Source of the DNA: Clostridia bacterium
GTDB lineage: Bacteria > Bacillota > Clostridia > Oscillospirales > CAG-272
Assembly (NCBI GenBank): GCA_017450965.1
Contig: JAFSSQ010000023.1
Location: 30,074-94,073, forward strand
DNA: 64,000 nt
Reading direction: 5' to 3'
Below are positions 5,912-31,686 of the stretch, piece after piece. The position numbers were made by a program, and so were the translations under genes. The notes beneath the pieces were generated by a model, which was given only the letters and a program-made list of their open reading frames with translations, was not told the DNA's origin and ran no database searches. Position 1 is the stretch's first letter. Each line of letters begins with the position of its first letter.

Positions 5912-7321
5912 ATGCGTAAAACAAAAATCGTTTGTACCATCGGCCCTGCCAGCGAAAGCGAAGAAACGCTTGCCCAAATGCTGGAAGCCGGTATGAACAT
6001 CGCGCGCCTGAACTTTTCGCACGGCACGCACGAAGATCATCAGGTGAAAATCGACCGCCTCAAAAAGGTCAGAGCGGCTTCCGGCCGTCCGCTTGCCATT
6101 ATGCTGGATACCAAGGGCCCCGAATACCGCATCGGCGTCTTCAAGGACGGGAAATGTATGCTGAAGGAAGGCGACACCTTCACCTTTACGACGCGCGACA
6201 TCGAGGGCGACAACACCATCGTCTCGGTCAGCTATAAGGATCTTGCCAAAGAGCTTGTTCCCGGCGACAAGGTGCTGGTCAACAACGGGCTTCTCATCTT
6301 TACCGTTACCGAGGTCAAGGGAACCGATATCATCTGCCGGGTCGACGAGGGTGGAGAGATTTCCAACCGCAAGAGCATGAGCTTCCCGGGCAAGGTCTTA
6401 AAACAGGTTTATCTCAGCGAACAGGACAAAAAGGATCTGCTTTTCGGAATTGAAAACGACGTGGACTACGTTGCCTGCTCCTTCGTTTCCAGAAAACAGG
6501 ATCTTCTGGACGTTATGGATTTTTTGAACAAAAACGGTGCCAAGCAGATCAGCATCATCGCTAAGATCGAGAACCGTTCGGGTATTGAAAACATCGAGGA
6601 GATCTGCTCGGCCTGCGACGGCATTATGATCGGCCGAGGCGACATGGGCGTGGAGATTCCCTTTGAGGAATTGCCCGCCATTCAGAAACAACTCATCACC
6701 AAATGCCGCATGCTTGGCAAACGCGTCATCACCGCGACCGAGATGCTCGAATCGATGATCCAGAACCCCCGCCCGACCAGAGCCGAGATCTCCGACGTGG
6801 CAAATGCAGTCTTTGACGGCACCAGTGCCATCATGCTCTCGGGCGAGACGGCAGCAGGCAAGCACCCGGTTCTGACCGTGGCTACCATGGCGAAGATTGC
6901 CGAGGCCGCCGAAAAGAACATTCATTATAAAAAACGCTTTGCCAAGACCGATTTCCAGATCCGCAGTGAAATGGACGCCATCTCGCACGCGGTCGTCGGT
7001 ATGGCGATCGACATTGACGCCAAGGCGATCGTGGTCTGCTCGCTCTCGGGTACGACCGTGCGCATGGTCTCGCGTTTCCGCCCGCCCATGGATATTATAG
7101 GACTTTCGGTCAACGAAAAGACCTTCCAGCAGCTCGGCCTTTCCTGGGGCGTCCTTCCGGTCATGTGCGAGGTTTATCCCTCGATCGAAGTGCTCTTCTA
7201 CAACGCAAAGCAGATCGCCAAAAAGACGCTCGGGCTTCAGCCGGGAGACAGGATCATCATCACCGGCGGCACCTCCTCTCAGGTCGGAAGCACCAATACC
7301 ATCCGCGTGGAAGTCATTTGA
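5912..7321 (+). CDS. pyk: pyruvate kinase
   Basis: MRKTKIVCTIGPAS...NIARLNFSHG...MLDTKGPE signature. Start moved from track ORF 5720 to ATG 5912 (GGAGGG SD at 5899-5904). Confidence 0.92.
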   Translation: MRKTKIVCTIGPASESEETLAQMLEAGMNIARLNFSHGTHEDHQVKIDRLKKVRAASGRPLAIMLDTKGPEYRIGVFKDGKCMLKEGDTFTFTTRDIEGDNTIVSVSYKDLAKELVPGDKVLVNNGLLIFTVTEVKGTDIICRVDEGGEISNRKSMSFPGKVLKQVYLSEQDKKDLLFGIENDVDYVACSFVSRKQDLLDVMDFLNKNGAKQISIIAKIENRSGIENIEEICSACDGIMIGRGDMGVEIPFEELPAIQKQLITKCRMLGKRVITATEMLESMIQNPRPTRAEISDVANAVFDGTSAIMLSGETAAGKHPVLTVATMAKIAEAAEKNIHYKKRFAKTDFQIRSEMDAISHAVVGMAIDIDAKAIVVCSLSGTTVRMVSRFRPPMDIIGLSVNEKTFQQLGLSWGVLPVMCEVYPSIEVLFYNAKQIAKKTLGLQPGDRIIITGGTSSQVGSTNTIRVEVI

Positions 7322-24755: not shown

Positions 24756-25256
24756 ATGCCCAGAAACAGAAAACTCGGCAGACCCACCGCGCACCGCAAT
24801 GCGATGCTCCGCGGCATGGTCACCCTGTTGCTTGAGAACGGACAGATCAAAACCACGCTCACCAGAGCCAAGGAAGTTCGTTCCATGACCGAAAAAATGA
24901 TTACGCTCGGCAAGAAAAACACCCTTGCCAGCCGTCGTGCAGCCCTTGCCTATATTACCAAAGAGGACGTTGTGACCAAACTGTTCTCCGAGATCGCTCC
25001 CCGCTATGCTACCCGTCAGGGCGGCTACACCCAGATCTTCAAACTGGGCGCACGCAGAGGAGACGCCGCTGAAATGGCGCTGGTAAAGCTCCTCACCGAG
25101 GAGACGGCAGAGGAAAAGAAGCCTGCCGCAAAGAAGGCTCCTGCCAAGAAAAAGGTTGAGAGCGCTCCCGCAGAGGAAGCTCCCAAAAAGCCGGCAACCA
25201 GAAAAAAGAAAGTTGAAGCTCCCGTAGCCGAAGCACCGGCCGAGGAGAACGCCTGA
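24756..25256 (+). CDS. rplQ: 50S ribosomal protein L17 (bL17) with Ala/Lys/Glu/Pro-rich C-terminal extension
   Basis: [15 protein letters not shown] motif. 166 aa, with a tail of about 54 aa. Confidence 0.95.
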
Positions 25257-25271
25257 TTTTTCCGGCAAAAA

Positions 25272-25312
25272 AGAACCGAGGGAATCCAACCGATTCTCTC
25301 GGCTCTTTTTGT
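25272..25312 (+). terminator. Rho-independent terminator of the ribosomal superoperon
   Basis: Imperfect stem of about 14 bp, AGAACCGAGGGAAT / ATTCTCTCGGCTCT, followed by TTTTT. Confidence 0.65.
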
Positions 25313-25329
25313 ATCACAAAAGTCCAACC

Positions 25330-25555
25330 GATCGTTGCATGGCAGAAAAAGTATATATCGGCGCAAAAAGCATGGAAAGGCGATTGTAGGAAAGGCTCCC
25401 TCCGGGAGGGAGCTGTCGCCGAATGGCGACTGAAGGAGCACGCGCAACAAATAGAATTTGTGCAAACTTAAAAGTCGCGCAGGCTTCTTCCGTCATTTTC
25501 CGGAGAAAAATGACACCTCCCTCTCGGAGGGAAGCTAAAAAGCACTTTTGCAAAA
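25330..25555. repeat. cluster of short GC-rich hairpins (REP-like intergenic element, unclassified)
   Basis: Hairpins GCTCCCTCC/GGAGGGAGC (25395-25413), GTCGCC/GGCGAC (25415-25430), GTCATTTTC/GAAAAATGAC (25492-25515), TCCCTC/GAGGGA (25518-25532). Confidence 0.35.
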
Positions 25556-25559
25556 GCTC

Positions 25560-25588
25560 TTGCAGTTTTATGAGAACTATGCTAAAAT
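25560..25588 (+). promoter_or_regulatory. sigma-A type promoter of the zinc-ribbon/L12-CTD gene
   Basis: TTGCAG - 17 nt - TAAAAT with TGc extended -10. Confidence 0.45.
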
Positions 25589-25630
25589 AAAATATATAAA
25601 GCTACAATAGTAGGATTGGAGAACGCAAAT

Positions 25631-26128
25631 ATGGCTTTGATTATTTGCCCGGAATGTGGAAAAGAAGTTTCTGATAAGGCTGCTGCGTGTATTCATTGTG
25701 GGTTTCCTTTTGAAAAGGGCGATTCAAAATCCACAACGCCGCTTTCATATAAAGTGACGATTCCAACTTGCAGAGATAATAAGTTGGCAGCGGTCAAAAT
25801 TGTTTGTGATGTAACCGGCTTGAGTTTGGTTGACGCGAAGAATCTTGTCGAGAGTCCTTCCCCCGTTATTGTAAAGGATACGACTCTCGATCGAGCAAAA
25901 GAGATCGCAGATCGCTTTTTGAAGGCACGCATTGATGCCCAAATCGTTGATTCAAACGGAACCGTTCTTGCGGAGGATGCTCAAAAAGCGGTTCGTTGCC
26001 AAAATTGTGGCGCAACTTCCATTGCGACCCTTGCAAGAGGATATTCTGCTCTCTGGGGCTTTTTAGGGAGCGGAACGCCCGTGAATGTTTGCCAATCATG
26101 TGGGTATAAGTTCAAGCCCGGAACATAA
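25631..26128 (+). CDS. zinc-ribbon / ribosomal L7-L12 C-terminal-domain-like / zinc-ribbon protein
   Basis: N-terminal CPECG..x..CIHCG. The central segment [29 protein letters not shown] aligns with the L7/L12 CTD core. C-terminal CQNCG...CQSCG. ATG 25631 preferred over TTG 25616 (GGAG SD). Confidence 0.7.
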
Positions 26129-26167
26129 ATATCAAGCTTTGAAAACAAGTAAAAAGGGAAGTGCATA

Positions 26168-26692
26168 ATGAAAGTTTTAATTGCCTACGCAGGCGTGACA
26201 GGCACGACCGAGGAGTGCGTGCGCCGTCTTGCGGCAGAGCTCTCCAATCTGGATGTCACCGTAACCGATCTTGCAAAAGAGACGCCGGAGCTTTCCTCCT
26301 ACGATCTTGTTCTTGTCGGCGGGTGCGTGCGCCGCGGCAAATTATATGCACCCCTGCGCAGCTTTTTTGAAGAGCAGGGAAGGGATCTTCTCGATCGCCC
26401 GCTCGGGCTTTTCCTCGTTTGCGGCCTGGCCCACGAGTACGAATACTACTTTGAACGTCTTTTGCCCAAAGACCTGCGCGAGCATGCTTTTGCAACCCTC
26501 TACTTTGGCGGAGACCTGCACCCGAAACAGGCGGGGCTTTGGGATAAACTTTATCTGTATTCCATGCGTTCAAGGCTCCGCGAGAGCGAACTCTCCGACT
26601 TTGAATATACCCCCACGCTTCCCGGCATCCTGCCCGAATCTATCGAGAAAATGGCCTTCCTTTGCAAGCAGGCCTTGGATGCCAAAAAATAA
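26168..26692 (+). CDS. flavodoxin-domain protein (HemG/flavodoxin-like)
   Basis: MKVLIAYAGVTGTTEE N-terminal flavodoxin signature, 174 aa. Confidence 0.65.
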   Translation: MKVLIAYAGVTGTTEECVRRLAAELSNLDVTVTDLAKETPELSSYDLVLVGGCVRRGKLYAPLRSFFEEQGRDLLDRPLGLFLVCGLAHEYEYYFERLLPKDLREHAFATLYFGGDLHPKQAGLWDKLYLYSMRSRLRESELSDFEYTPTLPGILPESIEKMAFLCKQALDAKK

Positions 26693-26735
26693 AAAGCATC
26701 CAGCATAATTTTGTAAAATAAAAATGTAAAAAAGG

Positions 26736-26764
26736 TTGACAAGACCGCTTCTTTATGCTATACT
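26736..26764 (+). promoter_or_regulatory. strong sigma-A promoter of tRNA-Lys
   Basis: TTGACA - 17 nt - TATACT with TGc extended -10, 20 nt upstream of the tRNA 5' end. Confidence 0.65.
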
Positions 26765-26783
26765 ATTCGGGTAGCGCAAAAGC

Positions 26784-26859
26784 GACCCACTAGCTCAGGC
26801 GGTAGAGCACTTGACTTTTAATCAAGGTGTCCGGGGTTCGATTCCCCGGTGGGTCACCA
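26784..26859 (+). tRNA. tRNA-Lys (anticodon UUU), CCA encoded
   Basis: Hand-folded cloverleaf. Acceptor GACCCAC/GTGGGTC, D stem GCTC/GAGC, anticodon stem CTTGA/TCAAG with loop CTTTTAA, T arm CGGGG-TTCGATT-CCCCG. Confidence 0.95.
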
Positions 26860-26865
26860 ACAAAA

Positions 26866-26897
26866 AGGCACATCCTTCATGGGTGTGCCTTTTTGTT
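26866..26897 (+). terminator. Rho-independent terminator after tRNA-Lys
   Basis: 10-bp stem AGGCACATCC / GGGTGTGCCT (one G-U), loop TTCAT, then TTTTGTTG. Confidence 0.65.
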
Positions 26898-27014
26898 GTA
26901 ACCGGGAGAATCGAACCTCCGCCCAAAACGGAGAACAGAGCGAAAACGATGGATAAGGCCACAGACCGTTTTGGATGGGGTTCGGAACATTCAAGTTGCC
27001 GGTGGCAACTTGAA

Positions 27015-27038
27015 ATTCCCCGGTGGGTCACCAACAAA
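27015..27038 (+). repeat. exact 24-nt direct repeat of the tRNA-Lys 3' end (att-like)
   Basis: ATTCCCCGGTGGGTCACCAACAAA at 26841-26864 and 27015-27038. Confidence 0.85.
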
Positions 27039-27084
27039 TAGGGCGTGTCCGACAGGGCGCGCCCTATTTGTTTGGTGACCCACC
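27022..27084. repeat. 24-bp inverted repeat (long hairpin) built on the duplicated tRNA 3' end
   Basis: Left arm GGTGGGTCACCAACAAATAGGGCG (27022-27045). The right arm 27060-27084 is its complement with one bulged T. 14-nt loop. Confidence 0.8.
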
Positions 27085-27163
27085 CCGAGCCGAACCCGAT
27101 CCCCACAAGTGGGGATCGGAAAATGCGCTTGCGCATTTTCTCGACATTTCCGATGGGCCAAGC

Positions 27164-27202
27164 AAAACAAATCCGAACTTTCGAGTCCGGATTTGTTTTT
27201 TT
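27164..27202. terminator. Bidirectional terminator downstream of the 1145-aa gene
   Basis: 12-bp stem AAAACAAATCCG / CGGATTTGTTTT with T-runs on both strands. 37 nt past the stop at 27239. Confidence 0.65.
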
Positions 27203-27238
27203 GTGTCCCAATTGTCTTTGATCGTTTGATTTGACGAT

Positions 27239-30200
27239 TTATTTACCGGTTGCTGCGCTCGGCAACGGCGGATCTTTCGGGATATCCACAACGGCGCTTG
27301 CTGTCGGAATATCGCCGCAAAGCTGTTCGTAGAGCCATCCGAAAATGCCGCACGAAGTGTTCGAGAGTATTTTCGTAATGTTCAGTTCTACCGGGAATGG
27401 AGCTTTATCCCACCAGGTTACGGTGAAGGTATAGGTGAGATTGCCTTTTGCGTCCGCTTTGAAGCCGAGCGTCGGATTTTCGACGAGCTTCGCTGCGCCC
27501 TCACCGCAGAGCGACGAGAGATAATTTTCAATAACGTCTTTCGCCTTGAAGAACACGAGTTCTCCTTTGTCGTCGAGCCAATCCATTTCCACGTCTTTGA
27601 ATACTTCGGGCATTTTGCCGCCGCCGACTTTATCGGAAATATACTTTTGGATCTTGGATCCGATATTCTTCTGGAAACTCTCGCTCTGGAGCCATTTGCC
27701 CATAAGCGCGCTGATGCATCCTTTCAGGAAGTTGGTCGTCAGATCTTTGAGTCCGTCGGTAAGCGCTTTCCAGATGCTTGCTTTTTCGGGTTCTTCGTTT
27801 AGTTGTTTCAGATAATTGCTGACGCAAAGGTAAATCAGATATGCCGCAAGCGCACCTGCCACCATACCGGCTTTTGCCTTCCACGACGAGCCGGTTTCAA
27901 GAATGGATTTGACTCCGTCCGAAGCCCAGTTGCCGACGATGTTGTCACCCGCCGTTCTGATTGCGGCAAAGCATTCGAGATTGTCTATATTGAATTTTGT
28001 GCCCCATACGATATTGACGCCGACCTCTCCGACAAACGCCGTGAAAACGTCTTTCGCCGGAGAAAGAATCGCGTCTGCAACCGGTCCGGCGTACAGACTC
28101 ACAAGCATCGAGAACGCGCAGTCGCCGATCCATTTCGTCCACTCCGCGCCGTAAACCATCCAGTCCCACGCGTTTGCCCACCATTGGGCGTTCTTTCCTT
28201 GCTGCTCCCAGTATTGTATGTAAGCGCGGACGATATCTTTGCTCATTAGTCGCAACTCGTAGACCGATTTGCGCGGCTCTTCGGATATTCTCTTTACTTT
28301 ATCGAGATATTCGTGCCAATGGTCCTGCGGAACATATTTTTTGATACGGTTGATCAGTTTTTCATGCTCCGCGTTCCATTCCGCCATGGGATCGGAGGGC
28401 TTTCCGAGCAGACGCAGATAAACGCGCGCCTCGTATTTTTTGCCCTCGTAATTGCATTCGACGGGTATATACATCTGGATCCCCGCCGCGTCGTTCGGCT
28501 CCCAAAGCATCGTCATCGGCTCGAACGCGCCGTCGTTGTCGTCGGAAACGGTCATCTTATAGTTTTCGTTTATCAGATATTTATCCGCTATGCACATATC
28601 GCGCGAAACGCTTCCGACCATCTTTTCGAATTTGATTCCGGCGTCTTTGACCTTTATGAATTTTGCACAGGTTTCCGTCCTTACTGCAAGCTTATAGAAG
28701 AAGCGCGTCTGCGAGAATTTTGCGTCGAGATCTCCCGCGTATTCTTTTTCATACGCTTTCGTTTTTGCCGACGGAACGGGATTCGTTTCGTCAAGCTCGG
28801 CGTCCGTATCGACGGAAAGCCCCTCGGGATACATAAATCCTTTTATCGTCCCGTACGGATTCTCCTTGTTTTCATAGACTGCCTCTATATTGACCGCGTA
28901 CCTGTCGGGCTTTGTAAAGCCCTCTTTCCTCTCCGTTGGCGGAGTGTTGTTCTTTATCACCGCCCAATAGGTATACTTTGTATCGGCAGGCTCGAATTTG
29001 ATCTCGAAAGGATCCTTTGGATCGTATTTGAATTCCTTTGGCTCTTCCGTCGCGTCAACGATCATAAACCGGAATTTATACGTAAATCTGTCGCCGCCGA
29101 TCGCCTCGAACGCAGTGGAGTTCCCGAGATGATGTATCGTCCCGGGCGTGTCGCCGTCTTCGATGAACTGCAGATACGGCTCTCCTACAAGCCGGAATAC
29201 CACCGTGTTTCTGAAAGCGGCCTCGTTTCCTTCGAGAATGAATGTAAGCTCGCCCGTCTTGTCGTTGTCGTCGGGATCCGCCGACACTTTGGCAACGACG
29301 TATCGCCCCGAAACCGTAAGACTGTGTACCGTCAGCCCGCTTCCCGAAGCCGAGATGAGCCTCGTGAGGTCGTCTCTGTCGTGTTCGTTGCCTTTTTCGT
29401 CGATCTCGGCTATTCTCGCCTTTACGAGAACGGGCGGATCTCCTTTGCGTATCGCGTCGCCGAAGTCTTTTGCGACGTACATTTTATACTTCTTTTTCTT
29501 GTCGTCGTCGGTTTCACCGTCATCCGAAGCGCCGGCGATCGCGGCTGCTGCCGCGCCTCCCGAAAGAACGCTTATGATAATGCCCGCGGGGATCGAAACG
29601 TCGACCTCTCCCTCCTCCGTCGATGCGGGATTTTCAACCTCCACCGTGCCGGCGGGAGCGACCGTCCCGTGCGGGATGATACCGTTCACGAGGAACATAA
29701 GCTTTATGCCGTTTTCTTCCACTTTAAGAAGAAGGTTTTTACCGTCGCTTCCCTCGATATCGCAAAGCACGAATTCTCCGCGCGCGCCTTTCAAAGCGAA
29801 CGTCCTCTTGGTTTCTTCCACTTTTACGCTCTTTTCGGTAGTCGCTTTGAAGTTTTTATATTTTTCCCATTCTTCCTCATACAGCTTTTTTTCTTCATCC
29901 GGTACGTATGACATTCCGTGATGGAAATTGTCGTTCATATCGGTCCTTACCGAATAGCTGTAGCTTTCCTCCCCGTCTATGTCCATATATATTTTATTAT
30001 CTTTGAACGTTACGTTGGATATCGAAAAATGAATATTGTATGACGCGTCGTACAGAACGACGTAATCGATACTGTAATCGCGCATATCTCCGCTATAATC
30101 AAGCGTCCATTCTCCCGCCTTTATGCACGGATTATAGTTGAATTCTATATGCCCGTAATAATCATTGAACGGGTTTTCGCCTTTGCGGGAGATCGCGATG

Positions 30201-30676
30201 CCGCTCCTCCAGATCTGATCCGAAAGAGTATCTTCTTTTATCGTATACCATTCGGAAGACGAATATCCGGAAAACATGGAATCTTTGTTGAGCCCTCCGA
30301 ATCCGCCTTTTTCATATCGCTCTCTTATCGGAAGTTCACTGAATTTTTTATCGTATGTGTTCGGAGCAAGCGTTTCGGCTACATCCAATACTTTGCTTAC
30401 GTTGCTGCTCCAAACCGCAGCTTTAAGCAAATGCACTCCGTCCACTTTGTCCGAGGAGAAGTTTTTATCGGATACGCCCTTTTCATAGTCAAAGCATTTT
30501 TCGGGGGAGCTGTATCCTTGCTCCGTTAAATATGATTTCTCCTGCGTTATGTCCCAGTCTTCATACATACCGCCCGTAGACCACAGGTATTTGTACGTCG
30601 CGGCGTTCGCAGCGAGCGCAAGCGAGGACGCGAGGATAACCGAAAGCAATACGATCGCAACGGTCTTCTTCATCAT
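27239..30676 (-). CDS. 1145-aa secreted/membrane-spanning protein of unknown function (signal peptide, mid-protein TM, C-terminal TM cluster)
   Basis: The coupled ATG at 30676 overlaps the upstream stop (ATGA), with AGGAGG 7 nt upstream. Signal peptide MMKKTVAIVLLSVILASSLALAANA. TM IPAGIIISVLSGGAAAAAIAGA followed by DDDKKKK. No domain recognised. The track start 30868 was rejected. Confidence 0.75.
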   Translation of the reverse strand: MMKKTVAIVLLSVILASSLALAANAATYKYLWSTGGMYEDWDITQEKSYLTEQGYSSPEKCFDYEKGVSDKNFSSDKVDGVHLLKAAVWSSNVSKVLDVAETLAPNTYDKKFSELPIRERYEKGGFGGLNKDSMFSGYSSSEWYTIKEDTLSDQIWRSGIAISRKGENPFNDYYGHIEFNYNPCIKAGEWTLDYSGDMRDYSIDYVVLYDASYNIHFSISNVTFKDNKIYMDIDGEESYSYSVRTDMNDNFHHGMSYVPDEEKKLYEEEWEKYKNFKATTEKSVKVEETKRTFALKGARGEFVLCDIEGSDGKNLLLKVEENGIKLMFLVNGIIPHGTVAPAGTVEVENPASTEEGEVDVSIPAGIIISVLSGGAAAAAIAGASDDGETDDDKKKKYKMYVAKDFGDAIRKGDPPVLVKARIAEIDEKGNEHDRDDLTRLISASGSGLTVHSLTVSGRYVVAKVSADPDDNDKTGELTFILEGNEAAFRNTVVFRLVGEPYLQFIEDGDTPGTIHHLGNSTAFEAIGGDRFTYKFRFMIVDATEEPKEFKYDPKDPFEIKFEPADTKYTYWAVIKNNTPPTERKEGFTKPDRYAVNIEAVYENKENPYGTIKGFMYPEGLSVDTDAELDETNPVPSAKTKAYEKEYAGDLDAKFSQTRFFYKLAVRTETCAKFIKVKDAGIKFEKMVGSVSRDMCIADKYLINENYKMTVSDDNDGAFEPMTMLWEPNDAAGIQMYIPVECNYEGKKYEARVYLRLLGKPSDPMAEWNAEHEKLINRIKKYVPQDHWHEYLDKVKRISEEPRKSVYELRLMSKDIVRAYIQYWEQQGKNAQWWANAWDWMVYGAEWTKWIGDCAFSMLVSLYAGPVADAILSPAKDVFTAFVGEVGVNIVWGTKFNIDNLECFAAIRTAGDNIVGNWASDGVKSILETGSSWKAKAGMVAGALAAYLIYLCVSNYLKQLNEEPEKASIWKALTDGLKDLTTNFLKGCISALMGKWLQSESFQKNIGSKIQKYISDKVGGGKMPEVFKDVEMDWLDDKGELVFFKAKDVIENYLSSLCGEGAAKLVENPTLGFKADAKGNLTYTFTVTWWDKAPFPVELNITKILSNTSCGIFGWLYEQLCGDIPTASAVVDIPKDPPLPSAATGK

Positions 30677-31686
30677 TTCGCCGCCTCCTTTCCGGGTTTT
30701 ATAACACCCGTCTTCTGAAGTATTGTGAGTACAAGTCCCGCAATCGCGAGTATCGCGCCCGTTATGACAAGTACGGGATCGATATTGAACAATCCGAGAA
30801 ACGCCGCAACCGTAAAGCCTGTCGTCAGCCCGCGGATAAAGCCGGATCCGCTGCCGGTTTTTCCGCATTTGAATTTGCTTGATACGGCGCCCGTGAGTTT
30901 TTGCAGGAATCCGTTATTCAGCGCCGCTTTGCCTGCGAGGAATGCCGCCGCGACGCCGCCCATGAACGAATACCTGCCGATAACTCCGCCGGACATAACG
31001 GCAAGGGAAAGGATTGCGGAACCGATTCCGAACAGCCACGGGAAGAGCGTTTCGAGCGAAACGCCGAACGCGCCCTTTATTTTCTGCCCGAAAGATCGCT
31101 TTTCGCCTTTGTTTTTTCCCGCTATTGTCGCGATGAGCGAAGTAAGCGCTCCGGCAAATATGCCTCTTCCGATAATACCGCCTATCGCGCCGAAGAATCC
31201 TCCGCTCATTCCCGCCTCGGCAAACGTAAGAAACGCCGTCATTTTTATCGGGAACGGGTTGAATCCGGCCGCCTGCATGATTGCGAGCGCAAGCCATATA
31301 ACGAACAGAACGATCGCCGGTATCAGTTTTTTCGGGTCCTTGAACGAGGATTTGATCGAGGAGAAAAACCGCTTTATTCCTCCTCCTATCGTTTTGAAAA
31401 CGCCGAGGGTTCCCACCGGGATTCCGACGCTCATTGTCCCGACGGCAGCTTCGCCGGCGGAGGTCTGCGCCGCCGTTGAAAACAATCCGGGCAACGCTCC
31501 CGCATTCCTTTCGCGCGCAGCCGAGCCCGAATATGCCGTATTTGCCCCGGATACGCCCGTTCCAGCGTTAACTTCCGACAGGCTTTCGGTCGGTGATTGC
31601 TTTATACTGAGTTTAGCGCCGCAGGTTCGACAAAAGTTTTCGCTTGCCGAAACGTCAGACCCGCATCTCGGACATTTTTCTGGCAT
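30673..31686 (-). CDS. zinc-ribbon domain polytopic membrane protein, Gly-zipper-rich, unknown function
   Basis: N-terminal CPRCG-x11-CRTCG, a low-complexity S/G/A linker, and about 6 hydrophobic helices rich in GxxxG. GGGAGG SD upstream of ATG 31686. Confidence 0.75.
   Translation of the reverse strand: MPEKCPRCGSDVSASENFCRTCGAKLSIKQSPTESLSEVNAGTGVSGANTAYSGSAARERNAGALPGLFSTAAQTSAGEAAVGTMSVGIPVGTLGVFKTIGGGIKRFFSSIKSSFKDPKKLIPAIVLFVIWLALAIMQAAGFNPFPIKMTAFLTFAEAGMSGGFFGAIGGIIGRGIFAGALTSLIATIAGKNKGEKRSFGQKIKGAFGVSLETLFPWLFGIGSAILSLAVMSGGVIGRYSFMGGVAAAFLAGKAALNNGFLQKLTGAVSSKFKCGKTGSGSGFIRGLTTGFTVAAFLGLFNIDPVLVITGAILAIAGLVLTILQKTGVIKPGKEAAK

Follow-up and report, generated by a model that had tools for sequence, protein, structure and literature searches.

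Introduction

Virus-encoded proteins with a domain of the ribosomal protein bL12 (L7/L12) were described by Mizuno et al. (2019, Nat Commun 10:752; PMC6375957), in which only the C-terminal domain (CTD) is present, inserted into unrelated phage proteins at sites that differ from case to case; these proteins have insert-less homologs, occur in diverse contexts, and retain the residues that contact translation factors and uL11. 'bL12 C-terminal domain-containing' proteins are also listed by UniProt/BFVD in crAss-like and Ralstonia phages. Phage bL12-domain genes have been known since 2019, none of them with a demonstrated function, and our literature searches returned neither a characterised L12-CTD decoy nor a phage bL12 function beyond the 2019 study. 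Here we describe a gene found in a stretch of 64,000 nucleotides from contig JAFSSQ010000023.1 of a Clostridia bacterium (assembly GCA_017450965.1), the whole of which is referred to below as the window. The gene, termed here the zinc-L12 gene, encodes a protein of 165 residues in which a bL12 CTD-like domain is placed between two zinc modules. The data presented below indicate that it is very probably an acquired accessory gene of phage type, composed of a two-zinc frame and an L12 cassette, and not a ribosomal one.

The proteins of Mizuno et al. and the zinc-L12 family are alike in several respects: both display a phage-carried Ribosomal_L12 CTD devoid of the stalk-binding N-domain and set in a non-ribosomal polypeptide, both have homologs that keep the flanks without the bL12 domain, and in both the genomic contexts vary widely while the contact residues are kept. 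The previously described cases, however, belong to phages of Proteobacteria, have other frames, and reach 724 aa in length, whereas the zinc-L12 family is characterised by a specific pair of zinc modules, by gut Clostridia hosts, by a number of cassettes that ranges from zero to three, and by phage copies that lie by a tape-measure gene, the copy in the window being chromosomal. No paper describing the two-zinc-module frame was found in the literature. The family is large, compact (approximately 170 aa) and modular, and thus lends itself well to the study of how a free stalk domain acts in the cell; natural controls are available in the form of the same frame with no cassette or with other cassettes, and of a frameshift allele in the same species.

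Results

A bL12 C-terminal domain between two zinc modules

The Pfam model of the Ribosomal_L12 CTD (PF00542) matches residues 41-96 of the zinc-L12 protein with E=7.8e-9 and 36.2 bits (gathering cutoff, 25.9 bits), and a phmmer search of all PDB sequences returned almost exclusively L7/L12 chains, the best of which was 1dd3 (E=8e-5). An AlphaFold2 model, built with 51 homologs, displayed a mean predicted local distance difference test score (pLDDT) of 85.8, and of over 90 across the middle domain. When compared by Foldseek to the CTD of Escherichia coli L7/L12 (1ctf), this domain yielded a target-normalised template modelling (TM) score of 0.90 and a root-mean-square deviation of 1.1 A, over 66 columns with an identity of 29%. 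The Pfam score and the superposition on 1ctf both indicate the alpha/beta CTD of bL12 with its helices 4 and 5. In a tblastn search of the window with E. coli L12, 18 of 44 positions were identical (40.9%). An earlier sequence-only reading of this stretch had proposed an L12 CTD flanked by two zinc ribbons, based on a hand alignment with about 18 identities to E. coli L7/L12, and both the domain assignment and the count hold. By profile and by fold, the middle domain is a diverged but true homolog of the bL12 CTD. In addition to the fold and the level of identity, it has in common with the latter a TGL.L.(E/D)AK.LVE core and most of the factor-contact positions; it differs from bL12 in its flanking zinc modules, in the lack of an N-domain and hinge, in a Cys that replaces Arg73, and in its location outside an rplJL operon.

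The N-degron adaptor ClpS (3o2b, 7d34) belongs to the same alpha/beta fold class as the L12 CTD, with a target TM score of about 0.7, and is a precedent for the use of this fold as a free adaptor. A ClpS-like adaptor was nevertheless rejected as the identity of the middle domain: there was no Pfam match to ClpS at E<=1, the identity was 11-16%, and L12 chains scored better in both sequence and structure.

The zinc modules on both sides of this domain are the best conserved parts of the protein. Both N-terminal ribbon models (Zn_ribbon_3 and Zn_Ribbon_1) score above their Pfam cutoffs, the pLDDT of the ribbon is 93-95, and its four cysteines (C6, C9, C20 and C23) are invariant among the 51 homologs. 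The C-terminal CxxC...CxxC module did not match any Pfam model, yet conservation within the family is highest here, with C123, C126, C154, C157, G137, G146 and G158 invariant in the same 51 homologs. The placement of the domains relative to one another is uncertain, as indicated by a predicted TM score (pTM) of 0.55 for the AlphaFold2 model.

The zinc-L12 protein is not a ribosomal protein

An identical protein is deposited at NCBI (MBQ7171101.1) under the name 'MAG: ribosomal protein L7/L12 [Clostridia bacterium]' (MAG, metagenome-assembled genome). This name overstates what the protein is. Residues 1-27 form a four-Cys zinc ribbon, and in the model this segment displays strands and not a helical N-domain. 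No match to Ribosomal_L12_N was obtained in Pfam at E<=1; the N-terminal dimerisation/L10-binding domain and the hinge are absent, as had been noted from the sequence, and the canonical way of joining the stalk is therefore closed to this protein. The TIGR00855 equivalog model of NCBIfam scored 34.2 bits compared to a cutoff of 84.4, with only profile positions 50-118 of 125 matched. The rplJ-rplL context and native composition of a true rplL gene were also not found: the gene follows rplQ, its GC content at third codon positions (GC3) is foreign, and a null allele of it exists, as described below. The zinc-L12 protein is not a ribosomal protein, and the use of 'ribosomal protein L7/L12' for members of this family in public records is a systematic misannotation. 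Among the NCBIfam models, a weak full-length resemblance was observed to NF049953, 'zinc ribbon-containing (seleno)protein DG' (E=0.015, 15 bits compared to a cutoff of 130).

A conserved two-zinc frame with exchangeable middle cassettes

A word-index search yielded 251 relatives of the zinc-L12 protein. In an exhaustive profile search of 1.84 billion representatives clustered at 50% identity, 372 representatives were matched at E<=1e-30 (essentially full-length) and 3,695 at E<=1e-10; at E<=1e-3 the number rose to 28,427, a set that surely includes unrelated zinc ribbons and true bL12 proteins. The plan of the family is that of a near-invariant N-terminal ribbon, a variable middle, and a near-invariant C-terminal module with the consensus CPKCGSTSIAT.NRGYS...GF.GSG.P.NVCQ.CGHKFKPG. 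Every invariant column of the alignment falls within the two terminal zinc modules, and the C-terminal module is common to members with unrelated cassettes as well as to a member of 86 aa (P0216) that consists of the frame with no cassette.

A precomputed PF00542 annotation was present in 33 of 120 relatives among the matches listed, and 12 of the 58 members sampled from viruses and genomes carried the domain. With a more sensitive hidden Markov model (HMM), built from the cassettes of the family together with the CTDs of E. coli and Thermotoga maritima, an L12-like middle was detected in 87 of 189 members. The L12-like cassette is the commonest of the exchangeable middle cassettes; the others are rubredoxin-like repeats, a pair of transmembrane helices, or domains without any match. 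Since the helix-pair cassette would keep both termini on one side of the membrane, we infer that the two zinc modules act jointly in the cytoplasm. Two L12-like cassettes are present in a member of 286 aa (P0040) and three in one of 370 aa (P0123). As the cassettes vary, and number from zero to three, it is the two-zinc frame and not the L12 domain that is constant in the family. The sequence-only reading had not recognised that several exchangeable cassettes can occupy the conserved two-zinc frame, and that the L12 domain is only one of them.

The most abundant type of non-L12 cassette, represented by P0108, was modelled with a pLDDT of 72 and had no PDB match below E=0.03, the only matches being to generic zinc ribbons. 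These results give no sign that the other cassettes mimic host proteins. Two family members displayed weak matches to PF20276 (ABC-three-component conflict-system C-terminal domain 1; best E=3.4e-4), a faint hint that some cassettes are drawn from conflict-system repertoires. A related protein of 1056 aa (P0195) has no zinc ribbon and carries at least nine tandem L12-CTD-like domains, of which the C-terminal repeats are very near the real bL12 CTD; judged from its sequence, this protein may be a multi-copy mimic of the stalk.

The family is mainly phage-borne

The window protein matches phrog_2546, a PHROGs family that carries no function, with E=1.6e-10 (residues 4-140 against profile positions 1-142 of 180), and the same profile matches two homologs, P0029 (E=5.5e-21) and P0108 (E=5.7e-11), end to end. 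The modular architecture is not described in phrog_2546, the alignment of which leaves out the C-terminal module of the window copy. Relatives are carried by 177 IMG/VR contigs, many of them 100-180 kb in length; in one of these (L007) PF00542 scored 53.6 bits. Among the GTDB species representatives at least 532 matches were obtained, nearly all of them in gut Clostridia, with Oscillospiraceae, Lachnospiraceae, Eubacteriales and Christensenellaceae as hosts. The possibility raised in the sequence-only reading, that the architecture tracks mobile elements, was borne out by the PHROGs match, by the IMG/VR contigs and by the location of the phage copies in a tail-gene module. The family has two traits in common with the proteins of Mizuno et al.: PF00542 is encoded by phages within a non-ribosomal polypeptide, as seen in L007, in the 12 sampled members mentioned above and in the tail and tape-measure neighbours, and there are homologs (those with other cassettes, as well as P0216) that keep both zinc modules without the bL12 domain.

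The surroundings of the family genes were compared in 82 loci, namely those in which a family gene was located by a motif, using crude open reading frame (ORF) calls that were clustered. A giant ORF lies no more than four genes away in 62 of these loci, and is most often directly adjacent to the family gene. The L12-type phage loci display a YomU-like tail tube gene, followed further on by an ORF of 213-254 aa, the zinc-L12 gene, an ORF of 150-190 aa, and the tape-measure gene; the latter, two genes downstream of the zinc-L12 gene, belongs to phrog_4211 (E=2e-104). SPbeta-like tail genes are also found close to the phage copies. In other phage loci the family gene and a giant ORF that matches no PHROG are divergently transcribed, and a PhageMin_Tail tape-measure gene lies a few genes off. 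PHROGs holds no family for the recurrent neighbours of 213-254 and 150-190 aa, nor for the divergent giant ORF of one such locus (L004).

A tblastn search of the GenBank phage collection yielded only two short matches, both to the N-terminal ribbon, and at that sensitivity the family is therefore absent from deposited cultured phages. Chromosomal copies occur as well, in unrelated contexts that include metabolic genes, holA and a glycosyl hydrolase gene. Taken together, these results show that the family is mainly phage-borne. In one Oscillospiraceae MAG (L090) two family genes stand in tandem (6001-6519 and 6535-7041), adjoining a gene for an SLH-domain protein.

The window copy is an acquired and dispensable gene

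The composition of the zinc-L12 gene sets it apart from its surroundings. Its GC content is 0.458 and its GC3 is 0.392, compared to a GC3 of 0.58-0.80 in rpsM, rpsK, rpsD, rpoA, rplQ, the flavodoxin gene and genes further downstream; the low GC had been correctly noted from the sequence. To compare gene order, RpoA, RplQ, the flavodoxin, and the products of two downstream ORFs (a 1209-aa ORF and a 336-aa zinc-ribbon ORF) were searched by tblastn against 166 loci. In none of the 165 other loci was rpoA, rplQ or a flavodoxin gene of the window type found near a family gene. In an Oscillospiraceae MAG (L096, 7666-7836, minus strand) a weak match of 57 aa and 40% identity to the RpoA C-terminal domain was observed near a family gene; it could be another captured fragment of the host machinery.

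The interval between rplQ and the flavodoxin gene (911 nt) is identical in assemblies of this species obtained from other samples (L167 and L168, and in part L173-L176). Two independent metagenome samples, L169 (ERZ28018705; 4876-5120) and L170 (ERZ28654060), carry the same natural null allele, in which a frameshift leaves only a short stub of the protein (Table 1). The foreign composition, the unique location and the segregating null allele together indicate that the gene was acquired and is dispensable. The sequence-only reading had attached importance to the site directly after the ribosomal superoperon; in view of the 165 loci that do not share it, the foreign codon composition and the frameshift in two samples, this part of it is not upheld, and that the gene lies after rplQ is a chance outcome of its insertion, with no functional meaning.

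A possible role as a competitor or adaptor for stalk ligands

The suggestion made in the sequence-only reading, of a decoy or adaptor that acts off the ribosome, is a reasonable hypothesis and remains our best guess, being consistent with the contact positions that are kept. The cassette would present, away from the stalk, the helix-4/helix-5 face by which bL12 catches translational GTPases, and the protein, in soluble form, would compete for the ligands of the stalk CTD or act as an adaptor for them, whether these are EF-G, EF-Tu, IF2 and RF3 or toxins that are captured by the stalk. The zinc frame would provide a conserved second contact. In phages such an activity would serve host takeover or counter-defence, and the chromosomal copy in the window would have been captured or left behind. 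We regard this mechanism as tentative, a possible one but with somewhat more to be said against its being correct than for it; when it is taken together with the identity of the gene as an acquired accessory gene, the combined account appears to us evenly poised between right and wrong.

The contact positions were tallied in 85 unique L12-type cassettes, many of them only about 30% identical to each other. At E. coli position 65 the Lys is kept in 69%, position 66 is hydrophobic, position 69 is Ile or Val in 93% and position 73 is Arg or Lys in 78%; further along, Leu80 is kept in 66%, position 82 is Glu or Asp in 90%, and Ala83, Lys84 and Pro91 are kept in 94, 84 and 82%, respectively. The window copy has K, L, V, K, C, L, D and K at positions 65, 66, 69, 70, 73, 80, 82 and 84. 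The contacts of L12 with the G' domain of EF-G involve V66-V68, K70, L80 and E82 (PMC5887453). As for toxins, the type III CRISPR toxin Cami1 is captured by the stalk CTD, according to the mention of Mogila 2023 in PMC12179292; the corresponding PDB entry, 8phj, was among both the phmmer and the Foldseek matches of the window protein. The tandem CTDs of P0195 also look like a pointer towards ligands of the stalk.

Several observations weigh against this account of the gene and its function. The conserved positions overlap those needed by the fold and by the HMM, and their retention is therefore weak evidence; moreover, R73 is a Cys in the window copy, and K70 is kept as Lys in only 39% of the cassettes. 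A lone free CTD binds the factors weakly, and on the ribosomal stalk 4-8 copies act together; a monomeric CTD would accordingly compete poorly, except if oligomers of the frame were formed. The cassette can be swapped for unrelated domains, and so may be only a variable payload. No defence or anti-defence family of PADLOC-DB v2 matched the window protein, two phage homologs or the neighbouring flavodoxin. The frameshift allele signifies that the function is not an essential one, and the window copy does not lie inside a recognisable prophage.

An extension of this proposal is that the two-zinc frame is a phage scaffold for the display of host-protein mimics, and that its L12 version, along with the tandem-CTD relatives, would be a stalk mimic that titrates stalk ligands, be they translational GTPases or stalk-captured toxins such as Cami1. 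We consider this broader idea distinctly unlikely. If it were true, a GTPase target would mean that the phage reprograms or throttles host translation, and a target of the Cami1 type would represent a new class of anti-defence decoy. More generally, if binding to translational GTPases or to stalk-dependent toxins is real, it would mean that phages of gut Clostridia have a hitherto unrecognised means of manipulating or protecting translation.

Alternative explanations

One alternative is that the fold has been exapted: the L12-like cassette would be an interchangeable payload or specificity module with a partner unrelated to translation factors, and the function would lie wholly in the zinc modules. 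The zinc termini are indeed invariant while the cassettes between them are swapped, lost or multiplied, ClpS (the second-tier structural match) uses the same fold for a different function, K70 is poorly kept, the window copy has a Cys at R73, and the Pfam score of 36 bits is modest. However, the sequence as well as the fold points to bL12, since the PDB search by phmmer returned almost only L12 and the identity to ClpS is 11-16%; cassettes that are only about 30% identical keep the TGL.L.EAK.LVE core together with most of the positions for factor contact; and the related P0195, with up to nine tandem and very bL12-like CTDs, recalls the multi-copy stalk. On balance, we find exaptation rather unlikely, though it deserves to be taken seriously. 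The cassette might also be a supernumerary arm of the stalk, with the zinc modules docked on the ribosome (on rRNA or on a ribosomal protein) and the L12-like domain acting as an extra or replacement arm for recruiting factors. Zinc ribbons are common among ribosomal proteins, and the protein has weak Pfam matches to L32p, L37e and S27e, all of which are generic and under threshold; a single peptide of a phage bL12-domain protein was detected in high-salt 70S preparations, but ribosomes could not be purified in that study by means of the tagged phage bL12 protein (Mizuno et al., PMC6375957). Cassettes of two transmembrane helices or of rubredoxin type in the same frame are ill-suited to a ribosomal role, and an L10-binding domain is missing. 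Such an arm therefore seems to us improbable.

Whatever the family does in phages, the copy in the window could be a functionless relic, left over from the insertion of a phage or an island and drifting to loss. Its foreign composition, the lack of phage genes nearby, the frameshifted allele in two samples and the att-like repeat of the tRNA-Lys 3' end that lies 0.9 kb downstream would all suit this scenario. The ORF, however, is intact, with all eight cysteines and a good ribosome-binding site, both in the window and in at least three other assemblies with an identical 911-nt interval; the AlphaFold model is confident; and other chromosomal copies are intact too, in unrelated contexts. We accordingly give the relic explanation little credence. 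A genuine ribosomal bL12 paralog, as the protein is named in NCBI, would account for the PF00542 match and for the public annotation, but it fails the membership tests: neither the N-domain nor the hinge is present, the equivalog score is far below its cutoff, rplJ is not found alongside, and the gene is foreign in composition, phage-borne as a family, and disrupted by a natural null allele. This explanation was rejected, and its chances of being right are practically nil. The account that we retain is that of an acquired phage-type gene whose product would compete for stalk ligands, or act as an adaptor for them, away from the ribosome, each of its two parts with the strength given above.

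The gene and its neighbourhood

The features of the locus are collected in Table 1. ATG 25631 was preferred as the start codon over the upstream TTG at 25616, since the homologs share a beginning of the form MALI.CPECG and a GGAG sequence stands at a 9-nt spacing from this ATG. The sequence-only reading had credited the gene with a promoter of its own; this was not borne out, as a consensus scan found no plus-strand promoter upstream of the zinc-L12 gene, and the sole candidate is a weak one picked by eye. The same reading had placed the gene between the rplQ terminator and a tRNA region. The terminator is indeed present, at the upstream boundary of the unit, but on the other side the flavodoxin gene intervenes before tRNA-Lys. 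No terminator was found in the 39 nt (26129-26167) that separate the zinc-L12 stop codon from the flavodoxin gene, and the two genes are probably co-transcribed.

Table 1. Features of the zinc-L12 locus, in window coordinates.
Feature	Position	Strand	Basis or remarks
rplQ	24756-25256		ORF; PF01196
Intrinsic terminator of the alpha operon, after rplQ	25276-25302	+	11-bp stem with 6 GC pairs, then T-run; upstream boundary of the unit
GC-rich palindrome CTCCCTC-N-GGAGGGAG, two copies 121 nt apart	25396-25412, 25517-25533		In a 374-nt low-GC spacer
Candidate weak promoter, TTGCAG-17 nt-TGcTAAAAT (extended -10)	25560-25588	+	By eye, a possibility only; not called by the consensus scan
Shine-Dalgarno GGAG, 9 nt ahead of ATG	25618-25621	+	Sequence
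Zinc-L12 coding sequence, 165 aa (two-zinc-module frame and L12-CTD cassette)	25631-26128	+	ORF list, Pfam
N-terminal zinc ribbon, residues 4-27 (C6, C9, C20, C23)	25640-25711	+	PF13248, 33.6 bits; PF13240, 33.3 bits
Natural null allele site	25708-25715	+	1-bp deletion at about 25708 and A>T at 25715, giving a 41-aa stub
bL12 CTD-like cassette, residues 39-107, beta-alpha-alpha-beta-alpha-beta	25745-25951	+	PF00542, Foldseek 1ctf; pLDDT 88-96
C-terminal zinc module, residues 121-165, CQNCG-(24 aa with RGYS..WGFLGSG)...CQSC	25991-26125	+	Conservation
Flavodoxin_5 gene	26168-26692	+	PF12724, E=1.8e-21; GC3 0.61 (native composition); not part of the zinc-L12 family
Near-consensus promoter, TTGACA-17-TATACT with TG, 11/12	26736-26764	+	Directly upstream of tRNA-Lys
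tRNA-Lys(UUU)	26784-26859		

The palindrome gave four strand-matches in the window, all of them in the low-GC spacer, and this number was not reached in any of 100 shuffles. An Rfam search of positions 25100-27400 returned the tRNA-Lys only, with no match for the spacer or the palindromes. The promoter upstream of this tRNA was the only strong plus-strand call in 25000-27400.

The 3' end of tRNA-Lys(UUU) is duplicated 174 nt downstream (26841-26868 and 27015-27042; 28 nt, 96% identical), and each copy is then followed by a terminator-like hairpin (26858-26898 and 27033-27072). The duplication resembles the att-type scar that an earlier integration or excision at this tRNA would leave. Eight ORFs beyond the tRNA were scanned with Pfam, and no phage-type domains were found in them. 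Two (the 1209-aa signal-peptide protein and a 353-aa ORF) had no Pfam match, one encodes a zinc-ribbon protein, and the rest are genes of the corrinoid-methyltransferase type. The 1209-aa ORF (27239-30868, minus strand; 1145 aa in another call) has a signal peptide, no Pfam domain and a native composition. Upstream of this ORF and overlapping it lies the gene for the 336-aa protein (30673-31686, minus strand), which begins with a ribbon of the PF13240 type and is likewise of native composition.

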